The notes beneath the pieces were generated by a model. That model did not search any database. It was not told the origin of the DNA and saw nothing but the letters and a program-made list of their open reading frames with translations. A stretch of 63,179 nucleotides of DNA, the filler included, from Collodictyon triciliatum (taxonomy: Eukaryota), in NCBI GenBank assembly GCA_043381765.1. It is 11 parts of 11 records of this genome, joined end to end, with 100 filler letters (N's around TTAATTAATTAA, not from the genome) between each part and the next. Parts side by side here need not be neighbours in the genome. Positions count along the whole stretch, not along the records: positions 27,434 to 33,454 come from JBHJMP010004766.1; 10 more parts are not named here. One strand, 5' to 3'. This document shows positions 12,027 through 52,200 of this stretch, piece by piece. Every line of letters begins with the position of its first letter. The stretch's first letter is position 1. The translations under genes and the position numbers were made by a program.

Positions 12027-12255
12027 GAGTTAACATCAATCATTGAAGAAGATATACTTATATTTGAATCGAATAAAGGAAATAAAAATGGCGATGCAAA
12101 TACATTTTAAAAAAGATATATAGCCTTTTTTTTAATCCATGTTATCATAACTTTCNNNNNNNNNNNNNNNNNNNNNNNNNNNNNNNNNNNNNNNNNNNNT
12201 TAATTAATTAANNNNNNNNNNNNNNNNNNNNNNNNNNNNNNNNNNNNNNNNNNNN

Positions 12256-15663: not shown

Positions 15664-18600
15664 GTTGTTCATTCCATAATCAATTTAATTTTCATCCTCG
15701 CGTTAAATGTGCTCCCACCGAATTTGAGCTCAACATCACTTTTCTCTTATGTTGCCATAATTAATGTCACTTTTTTTTGCAATGATTCAGGTCGAGGTTA
15801 AATATGAAAAAAAAAATGACACAATTCTGATAAAAACATAATTAAGATTTTTTTTTTTTTTTTTTTTTTTAAAAAAAAAGATAAAATTTCACACCCAAGG
15901 GCGCTTCAGAAGGGCTGGAAAATATAACANNNNNNNNNNNNNNNNNNNNNNNNNNNNNNNNNNNNNNNNNNNNTTAATTAATTAANNNNNNNNNNNNNNN
16001 NNNNNNNNNNNNNNNNNNNNNNNNNNNNNTCTTTCTTCTTTCTTCTTCTTTCTTCTTCTTTCTTCTTCTTTCTTCTTCTTTCTTCTTCTTTCTTCTTCTT
16101 TCTCCTTTCTCCTTTCTCCTTTCTCCTTTCTTTTCCTTTCTTTTTCCTTTCTTTTTCCTTTCTTTTTCCTTTTTTTTTCCTTTTTTTTTCCTTTTTTTTT
16201 TCCTTTCTTTTTCCCTATTTTTGTCCCTCTTTTCGTAAAAGGTATACATTCCAGTTTCTTTATTCATTCTCTCACTGTGTTATCGTAACCAACCAAGAGC
16301 ATGAAAGCTTCTCACTTTCAAACAACGGTCCAAATTTATCGCTCCTTAACCATGGACATGTTAAGATATCTAAACATTAATGGATACAGTATGTTGTTTG
16401 ATTACTTTTTATATAAAACATCATATCCCATGAAATTTAATTTCCGCAATCATGTGTGGTTGAAAGTTCTGCAATATATGTACGGAATATGCAGTATATA
16501 ACTTTTGGGTGAATGTTTTGCTAATTGATTACTATTTTTGAATGTGATACCCCTAAAACTCCACAGACTTACCAATCGATTGGTCATATATCGATGAGGA
16601 AATGGACTCCGTATTAAACCTTATCAGGTCAAGATATCATATGATGACCAGTTTTGAAAAGACCTCTGGTTTGGCATCTGACCGCTCACCGTCCCCTGAT
16701 ACAAGGGAGCCATAGAAACATAGTTCGATCATCCCCATTGTGTCTATATACCCTCTTGTTTTATTCTCGAAAACGTTTATCTAATCTATGCCATTAACTC
16801 GCCCATGAAATCTTTTTGGGTAAACTGCGGTGGTTCATGCGGTATCATTATAAAAAGCTGAATAGAAAAAACGTGATGTATATATTCGTTAGTTACCTCT
16901 AGCCATTGTCATAAATTGGCGTTGGAAGAAATTAATTCTTTCATTTATTTGAATCATATTGGGGAATTCGTAGATTGGATAAGCAATGTTACATCTATTG
17001 TTGGATTGGATTGGATTGGTAATTTTAGGGAGTTGTGAGGAAAGGGTCGAAAACTCAGGGGTAGAGCAAATCTGGACAACACACCGCAAAGATCAAACTT
17101 ATCATTTCTGGAATATAATATAAATTATGATTTTTGGATATTATCTGTCAAATATTGTCATAATTAATAATATTTACCACAAAAATATTATATTATATGC
17201 AGATTATGTATAGAGAACAAGAATTACAGCTGCTGACGTATCATTCACGGAATTTTCGCAACCATCTCGCCATAATTGAAAAAAATGGACTTGAATAGTT
17301 AAATTGACGATAATTCAGCATAAAAAGTAGAAGCCTCTTTCCGAAATTTTTCTGAGCCGCTTATTGCTAACAATATCAAGTATAGACAAATATAGTAAAT
17401 ATTAGCAAACATTAGCAATACATAGCGATATAGCCCGATTATTCTGGAAAACCCAAATAACCACAAGTTTCGAGAATCTTCTCAACTCCCAAGAAAGGGA
17501 GTTCGTCTATCTGAAATGGAATCATCTACGGATTTTTCTCTATGAAAACACATATTTGGAAATAGCTATTTTATTAATCTGGAAAAATTGAGATTTTTTT
17601 CGATTTCCCCGTGATTTTGGCGGGAGTCCAGGCAAATGAGCCGCTTATACATGGGTTTGTGGACGTGGAAGCTGTTTGGCGAGATAAAGATTCACATTCA
17701 CACGGATGAATCACCCGCGAGAGAGATCAGGGTCGCCCACGTGGGGTTTCCGCAGTGAACAGAGATACCACCCGATCGGAAGAATGGCCGACCGATCGCC
17801 CCTGAGGATGTTATAATCCACAACTCGCACAGCTTATTTTGCTGCCTAACCAACAAGATTCCGCTCTATTCTTACGTAGTTACCGTCTAAGCCTCCCGCA
17901 AAGCTCCACACACACACACGCACACACCAACGCCTTCAAAGTTCGACCACCAAGTACTTTTCTGCCACAAAGGCTTGTTAGCGTTTTCTTCCTACCAGAG
18001 AATCGTCATACAAGCCCGTTAACTCCAACGCGTGATTCAACAACCTGCCCAGCCGCCCGGCACTGCGCCAAATCTCCTCCACATCCCTCTTCCCCCTCAA
18101 ACGAGTGTGTCCCAGCTTATCGTGTCGTGTAAACCGGCCTGTAATTTGCGTAAGTGGACTCGCTCTTAGTCTCGCTCTTATTCGGTCGTTTTTTTTATTT
18201 TTACCTTCCTAGAGTTAATTTCTGTTTTTTTAAATTATGTCTATACACGAGTCGCGTATTAAAGTCCCTACCCAAGAAATGCTCCCACAACCACCCTACA
18301 GAATCTCCCCCTCCCCCTTTTTTTTTTTAATTGTGTTGCATGCCCTCAGTTGGCGTTTCTTGACGAAGACAGCAAGGAAAGTTTGGAGAGAATAAGTAGG
18401 AAGTCCCCATAGCGTCTCGAGTGACGAGTAGGGACTATAGCACACTCCCACTGGAGAGTTCTGAAACCTGCTTGCAGCTTCTAGTCACAAGAGTAACCCC
18501 TAGTTCTTTCAGCATCTTAGAAAAAGCCCAGAAGAGAACAGGCCGACTGCACAGTCCAACCCAGTGAGTGTCTTTGTCGAGTGAGGAAGGAAGCCATTGC

Positions 18601-19897: not shown

Positions 19898-21840
19898 ATG
19901 ACACGCCACTCACCCATCTTTGAGAGCTCCCTGTTTCCCACCGGATTCGGACTGAATCCATATTCCGAGAGCTTCTCGTACGGGGCCAACTCGACCAGCC
20001 CTTTCATACTGCCGGACATGTCTGCTGCATATGAGAGCGAGTACAGCAACACAGCAGCCGCAGCCTTTAAGTCATTCGAGCCACCCATGGGACACTACGC
20101 CAACCCGCCGGCAGCCCGGGCGTTCGGGGGCAAAGCAGGAGCTGCCCCGGCCCTCCTTCAGGTGCCGATCCTAGCGGAGCCGAAAGACGCGTTCGGGGGC
20201 TTTGCGGCCAAAAGAGGGATGGAAAAGCCACCGGGCAAAAACGCGGTGTCGGCAGCAGCGGGAGCAGGAGGAGGGGCATTGTCGAGCCTCGCAAAAGGCA
20301 GCGCCCCGACGCCCGGACTGGTGAACTGCAGCCGGGTGCGACCGGACAAGATCGGTAAGAAGACAAGGCGCCTCGCTCAAAGGGTTAAGATACATATGTA
20401 CTCTTTGCACTACCATCCCATCCCATCCCATCTCATCCCATATGATGTCATATGATGTCATGTCATATCATCCCGTCCCACTGTCCGTTGGACTGACGAC
20501 CCGCCCACGGCAGACTTTGCCCTATCGTTCCGGCGACACCTGGACCATGTCTCGCACGACCCGCGGCGCAACAACAAGGTGACGCTGCAGAAGATCTACG
20601 AGGAGTGGGTGGCCGGGATGACGGCGCCGCCCGTGCTGACGTACTCGGAGTCCCTCTTTGCCATGTACCTGTGCGGCGTCATCAAAGTGGTGGGTGGATA
20701 GCGGCGACCCGCGATTGGCGGTGCCATGGGCAGACCAAAGCCTCCTCCTCCTCCTCCTCCTGCCTCTAACATCCTTCTGCCCCCACCCACCTGCAGCACA
20801 AGAACGGGGACGTGACGTACAAGAGCCTCAGCACGTCCGCCGAGATCGTGGCCAGCAACTTCGCCAAGGTGGTTCCGCAGGAGCAGCACGTGGAGCTGAC
20901 GCACGTGCTGTGGCGGGCCATCGAGCGGCTGCACACGGCGCGGCAGCAGCCCAGCCTGGCGCACATCCGGCAGCAGATCGGCGACTTCCTCGGCACAAAG
21001 AAGCTGTCCGACACGGACTGGCGCAACCTGACCAACGTCCTCAACTGGTCCGACGACTTCCGCAACCACCCCGCCACCATCGACGGCGCCCCGGTGCAGG
21101 TCTACACGCTGGCTGCCCCCGCGTCGTCACCGTCGCCATCCGTGGCGCATCCAGTGGCCGGACTGGGCGGCCCAGTGAGCTCCGAGATCGGGCTGGTTGC
21201 GGCGGTGCGGGCGTTCATCCAGCCGGGGGCGGAGGGCGGGCACCTGGGCATCCGTGCGGGGCTGCAGCCTGCTGATGCGCGACGCCGCGACGAGTGGCTG
21301 AGTGCAAAGGCTGCGCTGCTGCTCAAGGCCGCCCCGGCCCCGCTCTGCGCCGTCCCCCACCACAGCCTCGTGCGCTACCTGCAGCTGATCCTGCAGGACC
21401 CCCACCCGGCCTGGGCTGCCACTGCCACTGCCACTGCCACTGCCACTGCCGCCGCCACCGCCACTGCCACCGCCGACCAGCCTCCCAACGCCCCCGGTGA
21501 TGATGGTGATGATGGTGATGATGATGATGATGACGACACCGGCTACAGCTACGGCTCCCTCGAGATGGCCGCCGCCTGCGCGCACTCCCCCGACGACCTG
21601 CGCCGCTCACGCTACTCCCACCAGCACCCCTACTCCTTCCCCCACCCGCCCGTCTCCGCCCCCCGTGCGCCCCTCGACAGCCTCTTCTCCGCCCCGCCCG
21701 ACCCCCTCGCCCTCGGCATTGGTCTCGGCCTCAACGCCCCCGCCTCTGCCCCCGCCGCACTCCCGCCCAGCAGCCTCAATGCGAACCCCATCTCCAGCCT
21801 CTTCAGCCTCCCCTCCATCTTCGGCTCCTCCGCCTTCTAG
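19898..21840 (+). CDS. Hypothetical GC-rich protein with a possible helical/winged-helix core, at least 3 exons; start uncertain
   Basis: Clean splicing (introns about 20354-20513 and 20690-20796) gives a continuous frame: PDKI|DFALSFRRHL...VTLQKIYEEW...CGVIKV|HKNGDVTY... It shows strong C/G-ending codon bias, and Ala/Thr and Asp homopolymers near the C-terminus. Confidence 0.6.
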
Positions 21841-22341
21841 ACTGCCCTCTGCCTCCAGTGCCGCATGGCTCTTCAATTCAATTCAATTTTTTTTTTAATA
21901 ATCATGATTATATATACATGTAAGTGTGTGTGTGTGGATGCGGATGGATTGGACGTGGCTGTTGAGTCTCATCCGCCCGCTATCCGCCCCGCCTCCCGTT
22001 CCTTTTCTTGCTGCGTGTTTTAATTCCTTTTTTTTTTTTTTTTGCGTGAATANNNNNNNNNNNNNNNNNNNNNNNNNNNNNNNNNNNNNNNNNNNNTTAA
22101 TTAATTAANNNNNNNNNNNNNNNNNNNNNNNNNNNNNNNNNNNNNNNNNNNNAAAAAATAAAAAAAAAAAAATGATTTAAAAAAAAAAATTTTTTTTTCC
22201 CTCTTTTCCAAAAAAAAAAAAAAAAAAAGGAAAAAACGAAACAGGTAAATGTATATTCGACACTGGACACAACTGGCTAAAATGAAATGTTTCCATCTTT
22301 CTCTCTTTCATGTTTTGCTTCCTTTCAAAATATAATGCTTA

Positions 22342-27333: not shown

Positions 27334-27434
27334 NNNNNNNNNNNNNNNNNNNNNNNNNNNNNNNNNNNNNNNNNNNNTTAATTAATTAANNNNNNNNNNN
27401 NNNNNNNNNNNNNNNNNNNNNNNNNNNNNNNNNG

Positions 27435-27473
27435 GTCCTGCACAAAAGTTGAAAGGAAGAATAAAAAAAAAAA
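27435..27473 (+). mobile_element. Retroposon 3' tail with poly(A), same family as 3784-3878
   Basis: GTCCTGCACAAAAGTTGAAAGGAAGAATAAAAAAAAA is 35/37 identical to the reverse complement of 3798-3834. Confidence 0.6.
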
Positions 27474-27494
27474 TCAAAAAAAAAACCCAAGAAT

Positions 27495-28374
27495 ATGTTT
27501 TATATAGATGAACTTTCCGAAGAGCACTTATCTCAATTAGCGACAAAAAAAATATACATAGTTAGAGTGGGCGCAGGTAAGTTTAATTTGGTTTACATGG
27601 TGGATGAGACAGGTAAGAAATTACGTTACACGGCACATCAAAGAATACATGATAGCAAATCTCTTAAAAATCATAAACTACTCATGCGCGAGAAAAAAGA
27701 AAAGTACAATTCTTCAGGGATATACATGGCAACATGTTTACAAAGTGATGTTTCTTTTGGTCTCAGGACTTTTGAAGAGAATCAGCGGTTTGAGACACCA
27801 GGAGTATCTTTAATCGATTTAGAGACAGAACTGAGTAAACAAAATTCATGCACGGTTGATCATGAATAATTTCGAAAATATGTATCTATGAAATCAAGAT
27901 ACCAGATAGGATTATCCACATTTTATGAACAAGTAACTTTTCGAAAGATGAAACGGAGAAAGTATGTCAATACAAAAAGAAGTGAACTATTGTTTATGGG
28001 CCGAATCGAAAAGACATTTGGCAAGGATGTTGTACTGGCGTATGGAGACTGGAGCAGAAAATCTCAGATGAACCATTTTATGGCAATAATCGTAAGAGGA
28101 TTATAAAAAATACAATCCAAACGTTTTGAACCAGTTAGTGTAAATGAATTTAGAACCTTCAAGATGTGTTGTAACTGCGAAAAAGAACTGGAATACGTGA
28201 AACCGAACGGAAATTCAAAAAACGTGTTTAGATATCTCATATGTAAAGGATGCAATCGCTTAGAAAGCAAATTAAGTATATTCTTGACAAGGGACATTCA
28301 CAGCGATAATAAATATACTCAAGAAAGCGCCTTTATCCTACATAAATTGCCTACATCGTCCTCTAAAAAAATAG
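27495..28374 (+). pseudogene. Fanzor (eukaryotic TnpB-like RNA-guided nuclease), C-terminal RuvC/zinc-finger half, inactivated
   Basis: Three ORFs in one frame are separated by TAA at 27867 and 28104. Motifs: RuvC-I-like IVRVGAGKFNLVY (DPG degenerated), VVLAYGDWS, VNEFRTFKMCCNC...LICKGC and RuvC-III LTRDIHS. After a frameshift the sequence reads INILKKAPLSYINCLHRPLKK* (TAG 28372-28374). It is intronless and AT-rich. Confidence 0.85.
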
Positions 28375-28490
28375 GCTGTTGGGTCTTTCCTGGCAGTCTA
28401 CACCATTACACAACCTTTGTGAAACAAGTGATGAGGCCTTGGATACTAGCGAACCAGGTTTGCCAATCGAAAGATTTATGTATCCCTTCT
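28372..28490 (+). ncRNA. Candidate Fanzor omegaRNA scaffold
   Basis: A 12-bp hairpin TAGGCTGTTGGG/CCTGGCAGTCTA with four G-U pairs; a CATTAC/GTGATG stem capped by TTGT-GAA-ACAA; and a GGATAC/GTATCC-closed junction containing GCGAAC/GTTTGC and AATC-GAAA-GATT. It starts at the inferred Fanzor stop codon. Confidence 0.55.
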
Positions 28491-28885
28491 GGTACAAGAT
28501 ATATACCCAATCAATTGATTGTTGATTTGTATGTCAAAAATTATCATTTAGTTTTGTTTCAACATAGATTATAAAGTCTTTATCACCATAAACAGCGGCC
28601 TAAATCAGATTATATAATAAATTCCATAAATAGATACATTGATCACACAACGGATATAATGGGTGATGCACTGATCAACGTGACAAAAATTTCGATGAGT
28701 GGGGTTGATCTCTGTCTCCGTGGCCCTGATCGAGCTGAAGTTTGGCGGGTGTGAGTTTTTATTGCGAGCGTGCAAGAGAAGAATACACGCGTTGCAAGAA
28801 TTGCAAGAATTGCGTGGTTCTCGTTTCACTCTTTCTGCTTCGCTCGGGCTGAGTACATCCTTTGCTGTAGGCCTGTTGCTAGAGA

Positions 28886-30253
28886 ATGGGCTCACGCAGC
28901 TACGACACACCACCGATCACAGAGGTCAAGGTCGTTCTTTTGGGTGCGACTGGAGTAGGCAAAACGTGCATCGCTAACCGCTACGCAACTGGATCGATCA
29001 GCTTGACTTCGCCGACAATAGGGTAATCCAAGTGTCTTTTCTCTTGCTCTTTCCCTTTTCTCTTTTTCTCTCTTTTTCTTTCTTTTTCTTTCTTTTTCTT
29101 TTCTCTTTTGGATTTACGTGAAGATTTCTGCACGATTTGTCAAAGTAAAGTCATGATTCATGGTTGGAAAATCAGAGTGTGCAATACATGTAAGATACAT
29201 TAATCTAACGCTCACTGCAGGGCGTCTTATCTGAAAAAGACAGTGGCTCTTCCTCAAGATATGTTTGAGATTCAAATATGGGATACCGCGGGTCAAGAAA
29301 ATACCAGCCATTGATCATAACCAAATTTTCCATTCTTTTTTTTTCTTCTTCTTCTATTTGCTGAAGGGCACAGTTGAATCACACGGCTGCAATCGTTTTA
29401 TTGCAATTTCATGGCATCCATTAAGAAATATAATCATTTTCATATGCATTATTTTCTTGATATTTTCAGCAGCGCGTTGACATGGTTAGATGGCAATGAC
29501 TCGTCTATTTCTTTTCTATTCCCCGCGATATCATCCCTGCGACAATACCTCTCTATCACTTCCACCATTGTCATAACACAGTACCGAAGCCTTGCACCGA
29601 TGTATTACCGAGATTCACACGCTGTTGTCGTTGTGTTTGACATCACTGACCTAGTGCGGATTCAATCAATTATTAAGCATGATACCATCTCAGATCCACA
29701 AAGTTATTTTGCCTATTTTATTTCATGATAGAGTATCCATAATCCCTTCTCGCTTTTTTTTTTTAAATAACAATAATAAAATTGTCCTTCACTCTCAATA
29801 GGAATCCTTTGAATCTGCTCGGCAGTGGGTAAAGGAATTCCGTATTTCAGGACCCGCTTCAGCTGTCATGATTCTCGTTGCCAACAAACGCGATCTCGAA
29901 TCTTCGCGAATCGTTGATGTCTCCATGAGTCAAGCATATGCGCAAGAGATTGGGGCCTCCTACATTGAAAGCAGCGCTGTTTCAGGAGTCAATATTGATG
30001 AAATATTTCTGAAGATCGGTAACTCTACATATCAGTAGCGCAATTTAGTTGGTTTTTATAATTTACTGGCCGTCTTGGTTAATCCAACAAATGACTACTT
30101 CTTAATACAAAAATGTATTCATTCTCTGCAGTTCAGGAGATAGCTAGAAGAAAAGAGCAACAGCCGGCTGGGGCTACAAATCGAGGAAACAAATTGACTT
30201 CACCCGACAGGTCAAAGGGCAACACAAATGAGCAGAGGAAGTGTTGTTCATAG
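28886..30253 (+). CDS. Rab GTPase, Rab5-family-like, 5 exons
   Basis: KVVLLGATGVGKT, PTIGASY, WDTAGQE|KYRSLAPMYYRDS, NKRD, ESSA and a C-terminal KCCS prenylation motif. Confidence 0.92.
29301..29579 (+). other. Probable AT-AC intron in the Rab gene
   Basis: GGT CAA GAA A|ATACCAGCC...TCATAACAC|AG TAC CGA restores WDTAGQEKYRSL. No GT or GC donor found preserves the motif. Confidence 0.6.
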
Positions 30254-30325
30254 GGAAATATTATTCCTTGCATACGTTTGAAGTTCGGAACACTTTAATG
30301 AGTCTTTTCACTATCACCATTACGA

Positions 30326-30328
<3 letters not shown>

Positions 30329-30408
<80 letters not shown>
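30329..30408. repeat. Poly(A) tract
   Basis: Mononucleotide run of about 80 nt downstream of the Rab gene. Confidence 0.9.
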
Positions 30409-30410
<2 letters not shown>

Positions 30411-31083
30411 TGAAGAAAAAAAGACAAAAATAATTACATTTATTCGCAACCCTCCTCTCTGCCTCAAATATATTCATGCGTGGTTCACATCTCCATTAAA
30501 TTCGAATGAAAATAAAGAAAGACTCTCACGAAGTAGCTGCTCGTCTTTGAATTGGCTACCCTGACCCTTCCGGTCAAAGACATCTAATTTTTCGGTGTTA
30601 TTTCTTCATCCCCTGAGACATCACTTTATAAATCATCAAGCAAAATGACTTGTGAACGTTAGATTTTATTACGACTTTGAAGCAATGCTTGTCCTCTCTA
30701 TGGTGTCTATTCCTTCCATTTTGCTCTGGGTGACCTGTAGAATCTTGTTTTAAGAGATTTTTTCCCCCTCTTCATTTTGATTTTTTTTTTTTTCAAATGG
30801 AACGGTATTCAGAAACGATTATAGGTTTACAAGATTGAAACCCCCATAAAGAAAATAAGGATTTGACAGGTATTGTTATAATTCAGACGGACCAATTTGG
30901 TAAATGGAGTAAAGTTGAGGACTCGCATTATCTCATATGTAAACAATTCAAATGCATCAGACGCAAGGGTTTCAGATGTAATTTTATAGTAGGTCATTTT
31001 CTGATTATCATGTCGAAGAGATAGTCAGATACAACATTTACGTGAAGCAGGAAGCAGACAACGAAGCACCCAACGGATTCTGG

Positions 31084-32877
31084 CTAACCCTTCGAAGCAA
31101 CGGTTGTCATTGTTCTGGTGGGGTCGCAGAATCCAGCCTTATGTGGGTGTAGTGCTGTGCTAGTCGTTTCTGGGGACGTATTGCAATCCAGCAACTTAGA
31201 CTCTACTTGTAATTTCAAGTACGTGTACCATGTCAACCCCAGTATTGATAGCATAATGCCAATCGAATTTGTCCACGTGATACGATAATTAAACTGAAAG
31301 TATCCGACCAAAACCACAACGATGGTTTTAAAATGCCCCATGACATTATACCTGAAATGTGGAACCCAGAAATTGTCAAGTTCAGAAAATGGTCCAAATA
31401 GATGAATAATATGTAACCTGACATTAATATGAAATAGGGACAGCCAGCCACCAAGCAATAATATGTCTATAAACTCTTGCATAATGAATTTGAATCCAAT
31501 AAAAATAGAAAAGAAAAGAAATCTTACGTAAGGGGTCCAGTTAGGTCGATTAAGAAATAATTGCTCAAATTGAAAACGAAAGCCAGTAACGAGGAAAGAA
31601 AAATAGTGTACTATTTCAGAATTGGTTAGTATCTCGACAGTTTTTCTTTAAAAAGGAAGATAAAAACAATTGAAAAAAGTAACATTGGATTTGAAAGAGA
31701 CAGCCGTGCTTCTCAGTAGACAGAGAATTATACATGCATATGCTTTATAGAGAAATCATACAACAAGCGGGCTAGTAAAATCATAGTTTATCAATCCCTC
31801 CTCTCCAGTAACCTCATCAAATGTTGGTGTCAGAAGCATCATAAATAAAGTTGACAAGGGTGCTTGGTAGTAAAGAAGTTGCATACTGTTCACACCCAAC
31901 TGGCTGTGCTTCTTTGCTGTCAACTATGTACGTTTACAAAGTCATACAATTTGTGAATTCTGCTCCATTTTTTTTTTCATATCATGCAAGCGGTTTAAGT
32001 AATTGCAGCCAGGAAACATAATAAAAAAGAAAAGGAAAGGGAAAGGCAAAATAGGTTAAAGGGAACAATGAGTCAGAGAAACTATAGCACCTTATCCGTT
32101 GAATCAAATATAGGTGGAAGTGTAGAAGGGAAAGACGATTTCTTGACTATGAAATAACATGGTTCCAATAAACATAACATACAACTTGACTACCAGCTTT
32201 AGTAGCCTCTCCAAGAACGGCGACTATGAAGCCGGTGAAGTTGAGTTCTACATCCGTGAATGTCGCGAGACCGATTCCAGCGCATGCGCACACCAGAGAC
32301 AGTTTTAGTTGGGTGGAAAATCGCACCTTGTAGACTAAGCTCTGTAACAAAACAACAAGAGGAATGGTAAACGCTTTCATGACCTGATAAAATCCCACTG
32401 AGTTGTATTGCAAACTAAGATTGTTGAGGGTAACGAATAGGGCATGCATGCAGGAAAGGCCAAGTATGTCAGTACACTTCAAAGATTTCTTTTGAAGGAT
32501 CCCAAGAACCATGCATAATTTGAGACCAATCGAGCAGAAAACAAAATGAATCAAGGTGACAAACGTCCCTATTATCACACAACATAAATGATATTTCCTT
32601 ATTGCTAAGGTGGGCATATGAGGTGATATAATATAATCTCTACACAGGGGGTGCATCAATTTATTATTTTATTTTAGAAAAAAAAGCTTCCATTTCAGTT
32701 TTTTTTTTTTTTTTACCACACTATTACTGCTGAAATAAAAAAATTACCGAAATTAAAATCGTAGTAAAAGAAGATAGACTTGTTCACAGAGACCAAAAGG
32801 ATAGAGACCATGATGTTGAACATCATAGACACAGAAACCCTTAAAAAGTCTGTCGCAGGGTCTGTGTGAGTGAGCAT
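31084..32877 (-). CDS. Nucleotide-sugar transporter, SLC35E3/UXT-like (TPT family), 5 exons
   Basis: LVSVNK, FVTLIHF, LNNLSLQYNSVGFYQVMK, SMQLLYYQAP and TGPLT|YNVMGHFKT, with multiple TM segments. Confidence 0.88.
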
Positions 32878-33554
32878 TGAGATGATAAACGCTTGGTGCT
32901 CGAACCCTATCTACTGATTATTTCGGTTATATTGTTTGTTATTTGAACATGACAACTAAGCGACTTTTTTTTTTCAATGACAAAAGGATTGCAGTCACTT
33001 TGGTTTAGCATAAAATGTTTTTTTTCCCATCAAGTCCGTCATCCTGCAGCTGCTTTTCTCATTATCAGGTGTATAATTACAAAAGACCCTATTAAAACCA
33101 AACACTAAACTTCCAGCACTTCGTTTCTGGACATAAGCAACTAAAAGCAGTGTGTTTTCCCCCTTTGCAACAGTCTCATTTTTGACCTCTTTTACACATA
33201 GCTTACAGTTTATTGAGATAAAGCACATCCTTAGAAACCACCTTTGCTTCTTGGACAATAATGAGCTGCGGACGAGACAGTGGAAACCCCCTGGAATATG
33301 TGTTGGAGTTTTTGTGTTTTGAGTGGAAGGAAAGGAAAAGAAAAAAAGAAAAAAAGAAAAAAAGAAAAAAGAAAAAAAGAAAAAAAGAAAAAAAGAAAAA
33401 AAGAAAAAAAGAAAAAAGAAAAAAGAAAAAAAGAAAAAAAGAAAAAAAGAAAAANNNNNNNNNNNNNNNNNNNNNNNNNNNNNNNNNNNNNNNNNNNNTT
33501 AATTAATTAANNNNNNNNNNNNNNNNNNNNNNNNNNNNNNNNNNNNNNNNNNNN

Positions 33555-33969: not shown

Positions 33970-36900
33970 ATGGAACTTCCCGAGCTGGAGATCAACCCGG
34001 TTGTGCGGGATTTAAGCTATGCCTCCTTTCTCAACGAGCTGCAGCGCGACAGAAATGCCTTCGCAGATGTGAGCCACATGGTTCTGCGTTATGACGAGTA
34101 CCAGTCTAGCGACGAAGGTGAAGGTGCTTTCGAGGATCCTGACTTTGTGCAGGACATTCTGCCCGTCTTTACACCCGATCAGTTCCCCATGCTCGATGTG
34201 CTGGAGCTTAAAATGGATTTTGAGGATTTCATCTGCCCGAAACTTTGCTTCTCTAACGTCACCGTGATGGTCCTTAATGGGTCAAGCATAGATGCATTCT
34301 TTCGATACATCGAAGCAAATGCATTTCCTAGTGTCCAAAAGCTCATGCTCACGGACACCCGTGTTCAAGACTTGAGGATCGACATGTCTATGCTACCAAA
34401 CCTACAGGTTATACAGGTGGAGAGTGACTCAGAGAACTTGGTTGTCGAATTTGTCAACTGCGACATAGAAAAGACTCTCTTCAGCATGTCGTTTATCAAG
34501 AAAACAAGCGAAAATAATTCCTTCCCTCCCTCAATTACTTTGGTGCAATCTCCTAAGGTCCAAATGCTTGTCTTCAAAGGATACAATCCGTCGGAAACCT
34601 TAGGTGCTATGGACAGGAGCACCATTCTTTCTCTTTCCATTTCAGATGTGAATCTGGGCGAAGTACCTGATGTTGTGTTCACCGCTACACAAATGACGGA
34701 GCTCAATCTGGATAACACTCAATTAAAAGAGATATCTGGCAGAATCGAACTGCTGGAGAAACTCACTCGCCTGAACTTGGAGAGCAACACTGACCTGAAA
34801 AAACTCCCTGATTCCTTGGGTAAACTCGACAATATCACTTACCTCAACCTTACAAACACTGGAGTCAGTAGTGCATCCTCTAAAATTTGGGACTGCCGTG
34901 TGAGAAGGCGCACCATTCTTACACTGAGTAGTTTAGGAAGAGGTGAAATCATATTTCCAAATATGCTTGTGCATGTTAAAAAATTGGATATTCGCTCGTT
35001 TGGACTGCGTCGTTTAGATGACTCGATTACTGCGATGAGCAGCCTCGAAATGATTAATCTATCCGATAACCTTTTTGACTCTGTTCCTATGATTCTGGAT
35101 GCAATGCCAAACTTGAAAAGGATTGACATGGAAAGGAATCCCTTCTCTATGCTTATTGAATACCATTCAAAAACAGATTTTGATCAAAAATTGGATGATT
35201 CGCAAAAGAATACTGATACGAAAGAGGATGAAATAAATGACGATACAGTCTATCGTGATTGCTTCCTCTCCCCGCGCTTTTGTTCGAATAGTGATTTGAA
35301 GATAAAGTTATCTTTTTCTCAAAAACCATCCCATTCTGGAGAGATGTGCACAAAAACTCTAAGCGATATTTGCTTGGTATTCAACAGATTTAATTCAGGA
35401 ATTTCTAAGGCCATCCACCTCATTGAAATATACAATAAGGATGTGACTTTCAACCAAAATGAAGTGAAGGCATTTGAACGATTCATCATAAATACATTGA
35501 AATCTGAAAGTTCTGCCACCCAACCCGACACCCCAACAAATCTATTGACTTTGAGTCCCGAAATTGATAGTCTCCTCGATGCCAATTTCATCAACGTCGC
35601 CAACGAAGCTCATTGCACAACATTCATTAATAACTCGGCAATAGTGAAGAAAACAGAGAGATTGTGGACATCAGATATCGATATCACTGCAGCTACGTTG
35701 ACGCAAAACAACTTGCAATCTATATTTGCGACTGGGTACATCCGAGGTGCATTTCTGTGGCTTGAAATGTTTTTGCGCCAATTTCCAAGATTTAAAAAAT
35801 CTCCAAGAGGGAAATTCATCCTTTCCTTTGTAATGCACCTTTTCTTTGTCTGCGTGCTATACAAAATTACTTTACTGGACATTAAAAATAGTTTCATTCA
35901 CGCTCATTTTGTTGGAAGTCAAATGTCAGAGAGCGAGCATGTTCAACCAAAAGTATTTGAAAACGTTGACAAGTTTTGGGATTACTTCCGTCAAGACTTT
36001 ATCCCTAGTATCTACAGCAAAGGTCAATATGAAGCGGTCGGCCATCTCCCCGACAAGGTAAATATTGTCGCAATCCCGGCACGTCTTCGTGTTCTCCGCG
36101 TCTTCGATGTTCCATGTAGTTCTTTTCCGGTGATGTATGCCCATTACAATATATCGAATTATCAATGTTACCCACCTCTTGATTATGATAATGAATGCAA
36201 AGAAGCCTACGGAAAAGGAGATCAAAAGTACACGTGGGTGAGCTCGACCGAGCTATCAGGATTCGAAATTCAAGGAAGAGCTGCCCTTTACCACGGGGGT
36301 GGTTATCATGTCGTCCTAGCCCACAATTTAGAGGATGCTTTGAAAACGCTCACGGAATTGAAAGAAAATGGGTATATTGATTACCAAACACGAGGCTTAA
36401 TTGTTGACTACATCATAGAAAACGAGGCGACAGAGTTCTTTTCATTCATGTCAACCTTATTCGAGTTTCTTCCTACTGGAGACATTGAAACCACGACAAT
36501 ATCCCAAGTTATATCCCAAACGTCCGTATCTCGCATGTCTGACGTTTGGTCTCTGATTTACAACACCATTCTTTTTTCATTTACGCTTGGACACATCATC
36601 CACGAGTCTTTTCAGGTAATGGCCATGGGTTTCGGATACTTTGGAGAACTTGCAAACTGGATAGACTTGTTTATGATTGGGCTTTTAACAGTACAAAATT
36701 GGATTTGGCTTGTCATGGCCTTTAACGTCCCCTCGTCTAACTTGGTTACTTATGACCCAGGACGCTACCTGACCAGTATGTTTTGCTTGGCACAGATGCA
36801 AGAGAGCAAATTATGGTATTTGTCCCTGCTTAATATATTCGCAGGTCTCCGTGTGTTTCCGTACTTCCTCATCCACCCCAACATAGGACTTTTAATTTTC

Positions 36901-39296
36901 CAGATCGCTTTGATGGTCAAATCACTGTTTTATTTCATGTTGATCATCGTGATGATTTTCTTTGTGTCTTCGCTCCCATTTCTATCCATTTTTGGAACAC
37001 ATAATCAGTCCTCGTCGTCCATATCCTCTGCAATTGCCACGATGGCACCCAGCATACTTGACGATTTTGATCAAGATAGCCTATACTCCAAGTTTCTGCT
37101 GGGCAAGTGTGTGGTATTTATTTTCTTGATAACGATATCTGTGATTATCAAGAACTACAGTATCGCGCATATGTCAGATGTTGCAACCAATATCATGGTT
37201 AGGTCGAAAGAAATTTACATCAGCCGTTTCACAAAGGAGGTCTGGACCTACACTTATTCGTATTCCCCACCACCTCTGAATGTTTTTGGGCTACTGTCAC
37301 ACAATGTCCGCTTCTATTATACTTCGCTGGGTCAAAAATTCATTGATGACGTATTTTCAATGATTCACTTCCGCTTTCGCACGTATCACTCTCTCGTCGA
37401 TCACACCTGTGAGTTCAAGGAGAGACTGGGGTATTCTATTGTCATTCCTGGCTCACAACTGATAAAGTACTATTTACTGGAGGCAGACCGTTATATTTTT
37501 TGGAACATTGCAACTGTTCTATTTGGCATTGGAGAATTCATCGAGCCATACATCAATAAAGTCCTTATGTTACTTCTCCAGTTTGTAGCCAAAATCGTGG
37601 GTGTTCAAAGTCTCGGTTTTGAGCATAATCAAAAGCGCGTACTTATTCGGATGGCACCTCTGACGTATTCCATATTCCGTTTCTTTTGGTTTATTGGCTT
37701 CTTTGTGTACCCTTTCTCTTATTTGTATGACGTTTTAACAGTTAAGAAAAGGGTATGTTTATTGAATTTCACTTAATATGTATCAAATGATTATGTAATC
37801 TCATTTGTGTTGAAACGAAACAATTGTTGTTCTTTTTCTCATTCTCTGCAAGAGTTATTGTGCTTTATGTATTTATGTCATGCCTTTCATATTAAAAATG
37901 AATGCAAATTGTTAAAACAAATATGCTTCTCTATTTAGTATCTAAAGGGAAGCAAAGGAGTAAAATCATTAGCCAGTAAATTTTATAATTCTCTTTCAAG
38001 ATTTTTCTCATACATGCACTTTCTCTCTGTAGAATATACACTATCATACCATATCTTTATTTTGAATAATCCTTGATAACCAGTCGATTTCAATCCTGAA
38101 GTAAAACCATGTCTATTTATTTATTTATTTATTTTTTCACGACTTTTTTTTTGGTAGCCACAAAGTTCCTGTCGCCTGTCCAGAACCCTGACGCATCCAT
38201 CCTCAGCGAATACAGCACTACAATCCTAGACACAGAATATCAACAGTTCTATGCAGAAATCTATCTTATCAAAACAAAAAGCAGCCATTTTTACATAGAG
38301 GATGCAACTACAAATACCCCTATAGCCATATTGCGCATTATACCTGATGAAATTAGTACCGAACTTGGAGAGGAGGCATATGACAGAACCATGACACATA
38401 CAATCTCTGTGCCAGACCGAACAAACATCGGGGTTGGAGTAAACTTTGAGGACAGGACATACTACATCACTCGCAACGGCATTTGCATCTACTGCAAAGA
38501 CATCCCATCAAGTAGTCGCACCAAACTCCAAATCCGTGCGACCACGACAGGGTTTGCCATGATTACAACAGACCCTGAAATGCAGCAATACATCACCCCT
38601 CAAATCACAGCAGTGGAGAGTGAGCTCGTTAGACACGTACCTGTGGGCGGCATCGCAGAGAGGCGCCTAGTCTACGGCAACTACATCATCAACACCGACC
38701 AATATCAAGACCCCAAGTTTGTGGGGGCATCTTTCCTTGTCTCAAAAGGCCATACAGGTGATGACGAGGGACAAGATACGTCTCAAAGACAACAGCAGCC
38801 AGACCTGCTTACGCTTGTGACTCGACGATTTCTTTGCGAGTTCCGTGTTCGCTTCTTTGCTGTCCAGGCATTGCACCCGAGTATTATCCAAAACGCCACC
38901 ACTGTTGGCTTCTATGAGAGCTTCACCGGCTCTGTAGACAAGCAGACAACACTCTTCCAGGTTCGAATGGAAATGAACGAAGAGTTGGTTTCCCGCTATG
39001 GAACAACCGGAGCCAAAGAGGCCATTGATGATGGAGCAGTCCGAACGAAGGCAACAAACATCACCAACATTGTATGTGGAGTGGATATCATCTTTGGCGT
39101 CTTCTTTTTCTATGCTTTCGGTAGAGACAAGAAACTTTTGGCGCACAACAGGATTCCCTTTAGCCCAGCCGATGATATCTTCCTTACTCCGTTTATCCAC
39201 TCGCCAACCAATGCAGAAATCACCGAGTGCAGCTACTGCGAAGACGCCCCTGATTCATCCGAGGAGACCATCCGTGATATCATCATGTCGGCCTAG
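33970..39296 (+). CDS. LRR - polycystin-2/TRPP-type cation channel - SPRY-like protein, about 1650 aa (exons 33970-37752, 37939-37975, 38158-39296)
   Basis: N-terminal LRRs (LTRLNLESNTDLKKLPDSLGKLDNITYLNL); a polycystin TOP domain (PARLRVLRV, GRAALYHGGGY, LKENGYIDYQTRGLIVDY); TM helices (YFGELANWIDL, GLRVFPYF); and a C-terminal IGVGVNFEDRTYYITRNG (SPRY-like). An upstream exon is possible. Confidence 0.8.
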
Positions 39297-39570: not shown

Positions 39571-39749
39571 NNNNNNNNNNNNNNNNNNNNNNNNNNNNNN
39601 NNNNNNNNNNNNNNTTAATTAATTAANNNNNNNNNNNNNNNNNNNNNNNNNNNNNNNNNNNNNNNNNNNNAATAATAATAGTAATAATAATAGTAATAAT
39701 AATAGTAATAATAATAGTAATAATAATAGTAATAATAATAGTAATAATA

Positions 39750-45600: not shown

Positions 45601-45784
45601 TTTCTTTCTTTTTCATTCTTTTCTTTCTTTTTCTTTCTTTTTCTTTCTTTTTCTTTCTTTTTCTTTCTTTTTCTTTCTTTTTCTNNNNNNNNNNNNNNNN
45701 NNNNNNNNNNNNNNNNNNNNNNNNNNNNTTAATTAATTAANNNNNNNNNNNNNNNNNNNNNNNNNNNNNNNNNNNNNNNNNNNN

Positions 45785-47375: not shown

Positions 47376-49211
47376 ATGGCTCAGGTAAGAGCACCCACTC
47401 AACGAACTTACCACTTCAATCTATCACAATAAAAGAAATTTTCTCACCTGCTGAACAGCCCCCCCTCCCCTCCACGACCGAACACCCCTCCACTTGCATC
47501 CCAACCTTACTCATCCCGTCATAACCAACACGACCAACACACAGTTCGAGGGAGACGGCAAGCGCCGCGTCCACTTCTTCTGGTTCCTCCTGTACCAGAT
47601 TGCCATGATCATCATCTTCCGCCTGTGCACGACATACGAAGAGCTGAACTACAACGACTACATGGCCGTCTACCGCGACTACATCCACTACTCGCACATC
47701 ATCCTGGCGATCGCCGGCTACCTGTTCATCTACGGCACCTCGGTACCTCTCCTTCTGCCCCAACTGCCTGCCCCTCCTCCCCCAAAGCCCCCACAGACCC
47801 GCCCACTAACCCTGCGCCTTGCACCGGACAGACCAAGGGCGGCTACACCAACATCCTCAACGGCTTCTTCCTGACGGGCGCCGTGCTGCAGTGGGGCCTG
47901 CTGATCTTTGAGTTCTGGAAGCGCGTGTCGAACGACGACTGGAACACGGACCTCGTGCTGGGGATCAACCACATGCTGTACGGATCATACGCGGCGGTGG
48001 CGGTGCTGATCACGGCGTCGATTGTGAGCGGCTACGCCTCGACGGTGCAGCTGTTCCACCTTGCGGGCGTGGAGGTTGTGCTGTACGGGCTCAACATCTA
48101 CATCAACTACCGCCAGCTCAACTCGCCGGCGTGGGAGCACCACCTGTGGGTGCATCTGTTTGGGGCGGTCTACGGGCTGGGCGCGCTGGTGGGGCTGAAG
48201 CGCACGGTGAGCGCGGAGGCGGCGGGCAGTGGCCACGAGGCGTCGCACCTCAGCAACGCGCTGGGGCTGGTGGGCCTTGCGCTGGTCTTTGTCTTCTTCC
48301 CCTCGTACAACGCCGCGCTGCACCACGTGCAGAGCCAGTCGATCGTCGTGGCCAACACGTACCTGGCCCTGGCCTCGTCCGCCGTCGTCTCGTTCTTCAT
48401 GAGCGTTGTCCTGCAGGACGGCACCCTCGACATTGCGCGCATCCGCAACAGCACCCTGGCCGCCGGCGTCGCCCTGTCCTCGTCCATCGCCAACCTCGAC
48501 GGCCCGGCCGCCGCTGCCGGCGTGGGCCTCGTCACCGCCATTGCCGCCGCCGCCCTCTACCGCCTCGACGCCAAGCTGGGCGACTCGTCCCACGCCTTCT
48601 CGACACACTTCACCGGCGCCCTGGTCGGCGCCGTCGGCACCATGGTCTCGCTGGCCCACCACCACTACGAGGCTAACTTCTTTGGCAACCGCTTCACCGA
48701 CGTCTACCCCTCGGCCGGCGACGCCGCCTCCAACCACGTCGCCTCCTTCTTCATCACCATCGGCATCGCCCTCCTCGCCGGCCTCATCTCGGGCTTCCTC
48801 TTTGCCGCAAAGCCCTGGTTCCCCAAGGCCAACGACTCCGCCAACGTCGACGCCGACTACATCGCCGACCAGTACGACACCCCCGCCCCCGCCCCCGCCC
48901 CCAAGACCCGCGAGATCGTCCTCCCGCCCCCGGCCCCCATCTACGTCGCCCCGACCCCTGTGCCTGTCGCCCCCGTCCCCGTCCCCGCCCCCGTCCCCGT
49001 CGTCACCCGCACCATCCTCGCCGGCTACGGCCCCGAGCAGACTGCCACGTGGCTCCGCTCCGTCGGCCTCGTCCACTCCGCCGCCCAGGTCACCAAGGAC
49101 AACATCACCGGCCAGGACGTCCTTGACTCCCCCGCCGACAACCTCAACAACTACTTTGGGGTCGAGGATGGCTCCCGCATCTGGTCAGAGATCGGCCACA
49201 TGGCCCCCTAA
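47376..49211 (+). CDS. Rh-type ammonium transporter family protein with Pro-rich linker and C-terminal SAM-like domain, 528 aa (exons 47376-47384, 47545-47742, 47832-49211)
   Basis: Rh-like motifs VLQWGLL, AVAVLIT, WVHLFGAVYG, FFPSYNA, NTYLALASS, IRNSTLAAGVA and THFTGALVG. The tail YGPEQTATWLRSVGL...DNITGQDVL...DGSRIWSEI fits a SAM domain. Confidence 0.85.
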
Positions 49212-52200
49212 GTTATCTCTCCCTCTCCCTCCCCCACCGCTGTCTCTGTTTGCCTCTCTCTCTCTCTCTCCCTCTCCGCTCCTTCATCTCAGACACCCTG
49301 TGGCGCGAATACACTCCGCCCCCATCGGGTGCTGGACACACTGCCAATCTAAGCTCGTCGCATGAGCAACTCCTCCACTCAACCCAACCTTGCGTGTCTG
49401 TCTGTCTGTTTGTCGGCGGCGCCGGGAGAGTCTTGTGGGACAATAAACAGAACAGTCCTCACTTGCTCCGGCTTCCCCGCCCTCTCAAACGCACACACCT
49501 CGACCCACACGACACAGCCACACTCCGCCCCGCGTCACCCAAGAACCAATCTGGAAACTAAAATTAAACCTTACTCGCATGTACACGGCTTGCTGGTGAC
49601 AGTGAGCAAAAGCTAGACACATATGTGGAATCTATGCCTTTTGATTCGGCTTTCTCATTGAAATATTCATATTATACTGCGCCCGTGGATTTATTTTCAA
49701 AAACACAAATTTCCATGGATCAGTTGTGCATGCGCGTCCGTTTTTTTCAAAATTGGCCTGTTATGTGGTTTATTTTTTTCCCTCTCTATTTTGCTATATT
49801 TCCGGCCGCTTGTGGCGTGCGGAAATTGCTCGGAAGGGCGGCTTCTGAGGGCGGAAGGTCTGCGACAAAAATGGCAACAATGTGGCTGTGGTGTTTGTGC
49901 TTCCAGCTTTTTTCCAAAGCTTCTAGCCCCTTCCGCACAACCTTGGCGCGCGAGCCAAAGATATATACGCGGCGTGATGAACGGGGCTGGGATGAATGCG
50001 TGTGTATATTGGACTGCCCTCTAGTGGCTTATATTCTCTTGCACCAAAGCAAATGGCTCATACAAGAAGCAACCAGCGGACATTCTGTTGTCTCTGCCTG
50101 CTCCATCGCACAATGTTTGATTGGTGTCGAAGCTTTGCATGGAGGAGAGCAGATATTCCTTTCATTGAATCGGTGCTTTTTGGGTTCAAATGAGACCTTG
50201 AATGATTCTATACAACCCCTAACTTTTTTCATCCCTCGTTCTTGCTCGATGGTGGCTAATTTCATCATCATCGTCATCATACCGCACAATAGCTGCTTTT
50301 TGCTTTTTGCTTTTGCTTTTTGCTTTTGCTTTTGCTTTTACCCCTTTGCTATCTTCCAAATAGTACCTTATAGATCCGTCCCAATCGCCCGCAGCACTCG
50401 CACATCAAAATTACGTTTTTTCTTTTCTTCCAAAATGTTTCAATGACTTGCCCTCTGCCATTTGTATTCACCCGTCCCATCTCTCTCTCATCCTCCTTTT
50501 TTTTTTTCCCCTTCTTTCTCTTTTCTTTTTCGTTTGGGGCAAACCTCTTTAAAAATTGTCGTGTAAATTTCCCTTTGCCTTTTTGGCGGGTCTCTCACAC
50601 CACACCATCCATTCGTCCGCCTGGAATAAAATCAAACTCCGACAATAGAAAGGCCCCGCTTAGACTTCTTTGTGTGTGTGTGATTCAATCGAACCAACAA
50701 CGCCATTGTCCACATCCAAGAGAGGAGTATTCATCAACTACCCGTTAATGAAAAAGAAACAAGGCCTTCAATAACTACACTCTTCTGCTTCTTATTACTT
50801 TGTTCTTTCTTTTGTGTATATTTGCTATTTCTTGGCCTCCGCCTTTGTAACACATCCGCCTCATACCATACAAAAAAAACTTGTGTACCATCCTCAATTC
50901 AACCGCAGCCTTTTTTCTTCATTATCGCTGGCAGATGTCCCACATCAATCCATCAATCCATATGTTTTTTTTTTATTATACTTTATTTATTTTTACCTTG
51001 AACATCATAAAACCTGCTCATTCTTTCCTCCCTTCTCTTGTCCCTTACTTTTACATCCACCTTTTAGAGGTGTTACGAAAAATGAGATGCAGAGTCAGCA
51101 GATCCTTCAGCTCTTGTTTTGTCCGCACATCCTTTCTTGCACATTTCTTTCCTTCTTCAATCGCTCTTCTCCTGCTCTGCCATTCTTCTCCATAATCTAC
51201 TTTTCATTTTCTTCCTTTTCTTCTTTTCTTCCTTCCCTTTTGTCTTCCTCCCTCTCTCTCCCCTCGTGCGTGGATTTTATTTTAATTTGAATCATATCAC
51301 ACCAACCGCAGATTCTTTTTTTTTTTCCTTTCCTTTTGGCTCAGATTGCCTCATCCAAACACCCATTTATTCTCGCTTCTTTTTTCAATCGTGTCGTGAT
51401 TCAAATCCGCAAATACTGGGCATTTCGTGATGTATGATCTGATGATTCTCGTCATCCAAATCACTGTGATGGCTGTTTTGGCGATTACTTCGATTTTTTT
51501 AATCCAGATTGGAGCGAACTGGATTCGTCCATCGCTCAATCCTTTGCGCGGACATGGGCTTCCAGGGCGATGGAGTTGCACGCTCACCCATGCCTATCCG
51601 CTTTGACAATATGTGACTTCAGAAAAATTCCATACTCACTTTAAAGCAACAAGCCCTGATCTGCCCCTTTCTCGCACTGTTATCGTCTATTTCATAAGCC
51701 ATTCATACTTGGTCATGACAACACAGATATGGCATTGCAAAAAAAAAGAAAAAAGAAAAAAGAAAAAAGAAAAAAGAAAAAAGAAAAAAGAAAAANNNNN
51801 NNNNNNNNNNNNNNNNNNNNNNNNNNNNNNNNNNNNNNNTTAATTAATTAANNNNNNNNNNNNNNNNNNNNNNNNNNNNNNNNNNNNNNNNNNNNCTCTT
51901 TTCTCTCTCTTTTCTCTCTCTTTTCTCTCTCTTTTCTCTCTCTTTTCTCTCTCTTTTCTCTCTCTTTTCTCTCTCTTTTCTCTCTCTTTTCTCTCTTTTT
52001 ATACAGACTAAATGATTGATTTAATTACAAAGCCTTCCCTTTATTAGCCAGATTCTAGAAGTTTAGGACATTATATGAAAGATTCCCAAGCCGAGCCTTC
52101 GTCTCACGCCCCCGAAACGTGTTAGGTGATAACCCGTACCACAAACCACCGAGCCGAATGCCTCGCAGATTCAATCACATCCCTCTTTTTTTGATCTGGC

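Follow-up and report, generated by a model that had tools for sequence, protein, structure and literature searches.

Do three small open reading frames (ORFs) at the left end of a short Collodictyon triciliatum contig represent three small genes, one intact gene that has been misread, or the remains of a single nuclease gene? Fanzor1 proteins are the eukaryotic and giant-virus homologs of TnpB, and they act as RNA-guided DNA endonucleases carried on DNA transposons; the original Fanzor paper is reportedly that of Bao and Jurka. The best explanation of the locus, to which we assign a probability of about 0.9, is that it is a non-functional Fanzor1 remnant, probably left by an element that inserted upstream of a Ras-family gene and subsequently decayed neutrally.

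The window, i.e., the whole 63,179-nt stretch of DNA that was analyzed, consists of separate ~6-kb contigs connected by ten joins (one of them at 27334-27433), in which the linker TTAATTAATTAA stands between runs of N. The contig of interest spans 27434-33454, and the first Met, at 27495, lies ~60 nt from its left end. On the same contig, an intron-split gene for a Ras-family small GTPase occupies 28886-30253 (one exon matches Pfam Ras with E 7.7e-11) and terminates with TAG straight after a C-terminal KCCS, and a TPT-family transporter gene is encoded on the minus strand. The presence of these Ras-family and TPT host genes indicates that the DNA is nuclear and eukaryotic.

As the preliminary description had stated, a single frame is shared by the three ORFs (27495-27869, 27888-28106, and 28164-28574), and translation confirmed that read-through joins them over two TAA codons (27867-27869 and 28104-28106). 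The motifs that it had quoted, IVRVGAGKFNLVY, YGDWS, VNEFRT, CCNC...CKGC, and TRD, are all present, and the tail that it placed past a frameshift (INILKK...YI...HRP) was found in the +1 frame.

By similarity, the read-through product belongs to Fanzor1. Searched alone against the PDB sequences, with X at the stops, the piece matched only Fanzor1 chains: PpFz1 (E 1.6e-6), SpuFz1 (E 2.6e-5), and GtFz1 (E 0.015). The same three were matched by an 8-sequence family profile (E 1.6e-72, 4.1e-69, and 3.9e-53, respectively), whose other two PDB rows are peroxin-19 (E 0.28-0.34); no TnpB, Cas12, or Fanzor2 chain in the PDB was matched by the profile at E ≤ 1. A search of 5.8 billion proteins identified seven longer relatives, the best of which, P0002, is intact and 648 aa long and shares 60% identity across 97% of the piece. 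In tblastn, P0002 residues 336-622 aligned to 27480-28352 (E 2e-100, 59% identity), and as judged by these alignments, the similarity of the piece to P0002 is far beyond chance. A second protein search (lengths 161-513 aa) returned only two relatives, at 34-36% identity, neither of them an intact relative closer than P0002.

The fold was assessed on P0002, the closest intact relative, rather than on the window piece. Its AF2 model, based on 69 sequences, has a pLDDT of 88.0 and a pTM of 0.86; an earlier model from 8 sequences (pLDDT 53.8) was too poor and was set aside. In a Foldseek comparison of the P0002 model with the PDB, the top seven matches were all Fanzor1 (SpuFz1 TM 0.76/0.81), with Fanzor2 (ApmFz2) at rank 18 (TM 0.22/0.29) and TnpB at rank 39 (ISDra2 TnpB TM 0.19/0.30). 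The Fanzor1-like copy proposed in the preliminary description is thus borne out by significant Fanzor similarity, from both the piece and the family profile, and by the Fanzor1 fold of the P0002 model. Domain libraries were less informative: Pfam returned only a sub-threshold PF07282 for the piece (E 0.19) and did not report PF26935/DUF8286, which is listed for its relatives; NCBIfam gave no match to the piece, and no Rfam family reached its gathering score anywhere in the window.

With P0002 as the reference, the extent of the piece and the lesions in its reading frame are as follows.

27434-27494, plus strand: A-rich stretch from the contig start to the first Met, reading VLHKS, stop, KEE, stop, KKKSKKKPKN, with two stops in the gene's frame
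27495-28301, plus strand: Fanzor1 pseudogene in frame 0, from RuvC-I to RuvC-III, corresponding to P0002 residues ~341-606 by tblastn, with PDB matches to Fanzor1 only
27867-27869, plus strand: in-frame TAA, where relatives have Lys (6/7) or Gln (1/7)
28104-28106, plus strand: in-frame TAA, where relatives have Arg (7/7)
28299-28312, plus strand: frameshift site, a one-base gain leading to frame +1, with RDIH then AIINIL vs. RDFNSANNIL in P0002
28303-28422, plus strand: C-terminal tail, read in frame +1 and closed by the natural TGA stop (28420-28422)
28372-28374, plus strand: third internal stop, TAG, in the +1 tail, opposite a Gln of P0002
28423-28500, plus strand: 3' non-coding part of the repeat, whose right boundary (~28480-28510) is placed to the nearest tens of nucleotides only

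Past the RuvC-III Arg-Asp pair, homology switches to the +1 frame, where RDIH is followed by AIINILKKAPLSYINCLHRPLKK, a stop, AVGSFLAVYTITQPL, and a second stop, vs. RDFNSANNILNNALSILKIPHTKLFKKQAVGYSSTALTVTH in P0002, and therefore the tail extends to the TGA at 28420-28422. The piece represents only the C-terminal 48% of the protein, namely the RuvC/zinc-finger half (residues ~336-648 of ~650 aa). The N-terminal WED/REC half of a protein that in Fanzor1 is ~600-900 aa at full length is missing from this contig, which ends ~60 nt upstream of the piece; tblastn found no true match to P0002 residues 1-335 in the window, the sole other match (E 0.009) being a chance match of a lysine run. Weak further homology to the relatives' lysine-rich linker is present in 27434-27494, and the relatives' tblastn matches start at 27444-27492. 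The course of the +1 tail to 28422 with its third stop, the restriction to the C-terminal half, and the position at the contig edge had gone unseen in the preliminary description. We suggest annotating 27434 to ~28500 as a repeat/pseudogene instead of three small genes.

The catalytic and zinc-finger positions were located by alignment with the relatives and with SpuFz1, as listed below.

27570-27572, plus strand: RuvC-I catalytic Asp site, GGC (Gly), aligned to SpuFz1 D383; the family has D-P-G, here G-A-G
28044-28046, plus strand: Gly of YGDW, invariant (G521) across 69 sequences
28146-28148, plus strand: relocated catalytic Glu of NEF, retained, aligned to SpuFz1 E541 and invariant in 69 relatives
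28158-28160, plus strand: Phe (TTC), where RTSK has an invariant Ser, from alignment with the relatives
28167-28253, plus strand: zinc finger CxxC...CxxC, retained, with CCNC at 28167-28178 and CKGC at 28242-28253
28290-28295, plus strand: RuvC-III Arg-Asp, retained, its Asp aligned to SpuFz1 D606

In SpuFz1, the ligands of the two Mg ions are given as E541, D383, N385, and D606 in the available text of PMC10432273. The SpuFz1 PDB chain has an N-terminal fusion, and an offset of 394 residues puts the aligned residues exactly on D383, E541, and D606. These correspond to P0002 D364, E555, and D604, of which the first two are invariant in the 69 relatives and the third is at least 90% conserved; the window copy has Gly, Glu, and Asp, respectively. 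The sections of PMC10530073 that were available describe the replacement of the canonical RuvC-II Glu by Pro or Gly in Fanzors and the use of another Glu ~45 residues further on, and on this basis the YGDW Gly is taken to occupy the former RuvC-II Glu position. A hand count places this Gly exactly 34 codons ahead of the NEF Glu, in agreement with the preliminary description. The Glu precedes the zinc finger in an E-x6-C-x2-C arrangement (NEFRTFKMCCNC), and the zinc-finger Cys columns are invariant in the 8-sequence alignment.

A published Fanzor1 signature, DPG...E-x6-[CH]-x2-C...C...RD-x5-N, is found in the accessible part of preprint 10.1101/2023.08.09.552727. It is fitted by P0002 and by 79/159 family proteins, many of the others being fragments or one position off. 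The pattern is unmatched on both readings of the piece that were tried, and by hand count the RuvC-III spacing R-D-x5-N is obtained only when the additional base near 28302 is left out.

Judged from its sequence, the window copy cannot make a nuclease, because it combines a RuvC-I Asp to Gly replacement with three in-frame stops, one frameshift, and a conserved Ser replaced by Phe. The preliminary description had attributed the death of the copy to the loss of the RuvC-I Asp; the Asp to Gly change stands, but it is not the sole cause, given the three stops, the frameshift, and the absence of residues 1-335 from the contig.

Public sequencing data bear on whether these lesions belong to the lineage or to this copy. 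Contigs of four public runs were placed on 27434-28880 at ≥85% identity, and three of the runs (two metagenomes and one organism) contain many variant contigs, mostly at 90-95% nucleotide identity, covering ~27499-28477. In the related contigs, position 27571 reads A, which gives GAC (Asp), at depths of 19.8/19.8 in run X2 and 181.5/181.5 in run X3, with AAC (Asn) in one loose-end X3 contig. Similarly, the codon at 28104 is CGA (Arg), at depths of 56.7/56.7 in X2, 192.6 and 187.3/201.8 in X3, and 24.9/24.9 in X5. The letter at 28311, within the frameshift site, is absent from one X2 contig (depth 7.4/27.2). Because Asp is present in 69/69 relatives and the related contigs read GAC (one AAC), the Gly at RuvC-I is, by this comparison, a lesion of the window copy and not a lineage trait. 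Several related contigs carry internal deletions, which, together with the AAC at the Asp site, indicates that decayed copies are present in those samples too. Places at which the window has A/T and the contigs have G/C are more common than the reverse (32 vs. 25, 49 vs. 34, and 35 vs. 15), and this excess, together with a long window branch in the tree described below, would fit neutral decay.

Could the gene nevertheless be intact, with stops and a frameshift that reflect errors of sequencing or assembly, the presence of small introns, or a variant code in which the stops have sense? The contig is small and unplaced, and the lesions could in principle be errors of its assembly, because the sole identical piece found, one 151-nt X1 contig at 27580-27730, covers none of them. 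Among the listed runs, none contains more than 7% of the words of the stretch, and there is no RNA run among the holders. In addition, the internal stops are all TAA or TAG, codons that are reassigned in some protists, and introns are possible in eukaryotic Fanzor genes according to the portion of PMC10530073 at hand. However, the neighboring Ras-family gene ends at a TAG directly after KCCS, and the three stops face three different residues in the relatives (Lys, Arg, and Gln), which makes a variant genetic code unlikely. Introns across the stops are unlikely as well: homology passes each stop gap-free, and the stops therefore lie outside introns. Further points against an intact gene are the frameshift, the replacement of residues that are invariant in 69 relatives (Asp to Gly and Ser to Phe), and the long end branch of the window piece (0.46 vs. 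0.18 for its sister P0002). Overall, we consider an intact gene very improbable, and a decayed Fanzor1 copy accounts better for the locus.

The anatomy of the element that would have carried this copy can be read from its relatives. A 380-aa protein with HTH and DDE_3 domains (Pfam E 6.3e-18) is a transposase of the IS630/Tc1-mariner type, and a homolog of it lies within 3.5 kb upstream of Fanzor in 56/160 loci and downstream in none (0/160). In the closest viral relatives, the transposase is 320-440 nt from the Fanzor gene and on the opposite strand. Four of these 56 loci were examined for their ends: inverted ends of 31-33 nt, 97-100% complementary, surround the transposase and Fanzor, and the units between them are ~2.7-3.3 kb long. 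Some of the 160 loci are the same contig in both collections, which leaves 133 distinct 3' tails; a right-end inner motif is common to 70 of these 133, and the end falls ~45-100 nt past the Fanzor stop. The last ~150 nt of the Fanzor gene are conserved at the nucleotide level in the viral relatives, and compensatory changes occur in 7/22 predicted pairs of their 3' hairpins, a weak signal from 7 sequences of which 3 were mis-cut. This conserved 3' end with hairpins would be as expected for a guide (omega) RNA; a guide RNA at the right end of the element is a known layout in the consulted parts of PMC10432273 and preprint 10.1101/2023.08.09.552727.

In the window itself, the best tblastn match to the transposase has an E-value of 4.6, its expected position being beyond the contig end, where the left inverted end would also fall. 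The right-end motif has no match in the window at ≤3 mismatches (the best nhmmer hit, E 3.3, is elsewhere), and no target-site duplication was seen in an unsystematic look at the window. The reading of the piece as a transposon copy therefore draws on the relatives, because no inverted end or transposase is seen in the window. A by-eye candidate for the right end near 28489-28500 (“...GGTACAAG”) was dropped since no search backs it, and a MAFFT alignment of the window 3' region with four viral tails was set aside for the window, which was misaligned. The cover by related contigs ends between ~28477 and 28511, 55-90 nt past the stop codon; depth is low across the bin 28463-28511 and falls to zero at 28512 and beyond. 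This is where the element end is expected, and it serves as a pointer only to the repeat boundary.

Taken together, an ancestral element with a Fanzor1 gene and an IS630/Tc1-mariner DDE transposase between 32-nt inverted ends, as found in giant-virus contigs, may have inserted upstream of the host Ras-family GTPase gene. The inserted copy would then have decayed neutrally, leaving the Fanzor1 RuvC/zinc-finger half on this contig.

The 3' region also bears on whether the remnant has been retained in a new function, either as an in-trans guide RNA (a “ghost” locus) or as a zinc-finger peptide from the ORF at 28164. Ghost loci, which have a guide RNA without a Fanzor gene, are described for Spizellomyces in the available text of PMC10432273, and both the zinc-finger cysteines and a 12-bp hairpin at ~28373-28400 persist in the window. 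By contrast, the folding energy of 28320-28500 is ordinary (z -1.46, with 15/200 shuffles folding as well), and the conserved right-end motif of the relatives is absent from the window. We give retention for a new role hardly any credence and favor neutral decay of the remnant.

The family to which the piece belongs is very large and is found mostly in giant-virus contigs; at E ≤ 0.001 it has 7660 representatives, and 1590 remain at the stricter E ≤ 1e-30. Relatives are encoded by 332/417 matched stretches in IMG/VR, many of which lie on MAG contigs of giant viruses that reach 280 kb, and by 416/594 stretches of metagenome contigs among the matches listed. The nearest Atlas clusters are 92-100% Viruses, most commonly Nucleocytoviricota, and carry Pfam DUF8286. 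An uninterrupted ORF (median 625 aa) is present in 160/160 fetched loci, some of them clipped by contig ends.

A tree was built from an input of 200 rows, comprising the piece, P0002-P0060 proteins of at least 550 aa, and distinct locus proteins of at least 580 aa; removal of rows ≥75% identical to a kept row left 73, which were analyzed in a quick LG+G4 search. The tree was midpoint-rooted only and is silent on the direction of transfer. The piece groups with P0002 (SH-aLRT 99) and then with P0030 (99), and in this 73-row tree the trio lies outside any clade of viral rows. Among the viral rows, those most similar to the piece reach 41-43% identity.

These viral affinities raise the question of whether the piece derives from an endogenous viral element, a larger giant-virus genome that became integrated, instead of from a free-standing transposon. 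The predominance of viral sequences in the family and in the nearest Atlas clusters is consistent with such a relic, as is the occurrence of similar Fanzor elements in an integrated giant virus of a green alga, reported in the accessible portion of preprint 10.1101/2024.09.03.611062; moreover, the contig ends upstream of the piece, which leaves that flank unread. On the other hand, intron-bearing host genes begin within ~470 nt downstream, and the G+C content of the Fanzor1 piece (0.349) is close to that of the remainder of the contig (0.371). The many diverged contigs, whose cover ends 60-90 nt past the stop, fit a short repeat unit, and the clade of the window piece, P0002, and P0030 is not nested among the viral rows. 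A viral relic is therefore unlikely, and a remnant of a single inserted element remains our preferred reading.

A further proposal, which we put forward tentatively and regard as possible though doubtful, is that the window piece, P0002, and P0030 represent a branch of its own, resident in eukaryotes, of the IS630/Tc1-mariner Fanzor1 elements known from giant viruses, with its own shorter protein tail and a different right end and guide RNA, and that live copies may persist in related organisms, in which the Asp and Arg codons are intact in many of the variant contigs. If true, this would be another instance in which an RNA-guided nuclease spread from virus to host, and it would supply an uncharacterized Fanzor1 variant.

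The suggestion of the preliminary description that intact relatives might form a new family is not upheld. By sequence comparison, the piece is a partial and decayed Fanzor1 copy from a clade that is already known, very large, and borne mainly by giant viruses, and such elements and their fragments in host genomes are already described in the available part of a 2024 preprint (10.1101/2024.09.03.611062). In itself, therefore, the locus is of little importance: this family of RNA-guided nucleases carried by transposons is well described, and the piece is a further dead copy of it. The sharing of Fanzor1 elements by giant viruses with protist/algal hosts, already reported, gains one more data point. 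The locus also points to the intact 648-aa P0002 and to the large, mostly viral DUF8286 clade, in which element ends and 3' RNA hairpins are easily defined and which could be mined for working nucleases.

Fanzor1 is recorded in fungi, protists, arthropods, plants, and giant viruses in the sections of PMC10432273 that were consulted, and the text available from PMC10530073 distinguishes four Fanzor1 families with a rearranged catalytic site and with transposon associations that include Mariner/Tc1. The piece shares with the solved Fanzor1 proteins SpuFz1, PpFz1, and GtFz1 the same order of RuvC-I, relocated Glu, CxxC...CxxC, and RuvC-III, and the alignment of the family profile with SpuFz1 extends over the full length. 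It differs in that identity at the fold level, from the P0002 model comparison, is only ~20%; moreover, neither the WED/REC half nor the RuvC-I Asp is present in the window copy, whose reading is broken at four points. Compared with the viral relatives, the window lineage has a shorter C-terminal tail. Guide RNAs of viral Fanzor1 are described in preprint 10.1101/2023.08.09.552727.

Fanzor2 and the TnpBs of IS607/IS605 are likewise RNA-guided RuvC nucleases with a zinc finger, and the relocated Glu is common to Fanzor2 and some TnpBs, as given in the parts available of PMC10530073 and preprint 10.1101/2023.08.09.552727. Unlike Fanzor1, however, they gave no profile match at E ≤ 1 and only weak fold matches, and the transposase associated with the relatives belongs to the DDE enzymes instead of the serine or Y1 recombinases.

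The Fanzor1-bearing S. punctatus has many partial or gene-less copies beside full ones (PMC10432273, in the text available). The window piece is similarly partial, and other runs contain many related variant contigs. The ghost loci described there differ in that they have conserved ends and a working guide RNA, whereas the window has no end motif and the 3' region of the piece folds ordinarily.

A close parallel in kind is given by the IS630-Tc1-mariner Fanzor1 elements in an integrated giant virus of Chlamydomonas reinhardtii (preprint 10.1101/2024.09.03.611062, as far as its text was available); variants that are degraded or contain Fanzor alone are reported there as well, together with a fragment of Fanzor on a chromosome of the host. 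The likeness to these virus elements is one of description and is carried by the relatives, in which a DDE_3 transposase likewise lies upstream of Fanzor1 between inverted ends and the right end falls just behind Fanzor; the window has neither a transposase nor a recognizable end. As in the C. reinhardtii case, the window contains a decayed Fanzor fragment among host genes.

The window is joined by ten linkers of 100 nt, each of which consists of 44 N, TTAATTAATTAA and a further 44 N. The contigs between them are about 6 kb each, except for two shorter ones of 3.7 and 5.2 kb, and contigs that are adjacent in the window are not necessarily adjacent in the genome.

Linkers in the window
6030-6129
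12156-12255
15930-16029
22053-22152
27334-27433
33455-33554
39571-39670
45685-45784
51796-51895
57905-58004

Extended (GA)n and (GAAAAAA)n repeats lie directly against contig ends (27265-27333, 33330-33454), and the assembly probably breaks at these ends because of them. A poly(A) tract some 80 nt long is also present at 30330-30409, directly after the stop codon of the Ras-family gene.

Base composition is mixed, with a G+C content of 62-65% at 20001-22000 and 48001-50000, on two contigs, compared to 31-45% across most of the window. This may reflect isochores, another compartment, or another organism. Each high-G+C stretch carries a long ORF, and a Pfam search of the two ORFs returned no match for either. 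The product of the longer one looks membrane-spanning.

Long ORFs in the high-G+C stretches
20812-21840, 342 aa
47625-49211, 528 aa

Elsewhere in the window, an unbroken ORF of 1268 aa (33970-37776) encodes leucine-rich repeats together with two further domains, polycystin and ion-transport (Pfam), and an ORF of 395 aa behind it (38109-39296) was searched against Pfam without any match. Two PHO80-type cyclin genes form a paralogous pair of neighbours on the same strand.

PHO80-type cyclin genes
52903-53553, Pfam Cyclin, E = 5.1e-15
54551-55177, Pfam Cyclin, E = 1.3e-12

Because window positions 27580-27730 are identical to one 151-nt contig of a public lake-water metagenome run (coded X1), there is a hint, but not more, that fresh water is the habitat of the source organism or of a very close relative.

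Among the retrieved loci encoding Fanzor1 relatives, two further neighbours recur upstream of viral Fanzor1 genes, at 25 loci apiece. A Pfam search of the shorter one gave no match.

Recurring upstream neighbours, with example loci
L018:4128-5885, minus strand, about 585 aa, a repeat protein bearing DUF4379 treble-clef zinc fingers
L046:5523-5930, plus strand, 135-aa ORF ending 68 nt ahead of the Fanzor start

In the giant-virus relatives, conservation at the nucleotide level covers the final ~150 nt of the Fanzor1 gene together with the right inverted end.

Conserved 3' segments
L001:7756-7952
L002:7753-7949
L003:7723-7919
L005:7702-7898

Inside the coding sequence of these segments are predicted hairpins with compensatory changes, and the conserved, hairpin-bearing 3' segment of the viral Fanzor1 genes is probably a guide-RNA scaffold.
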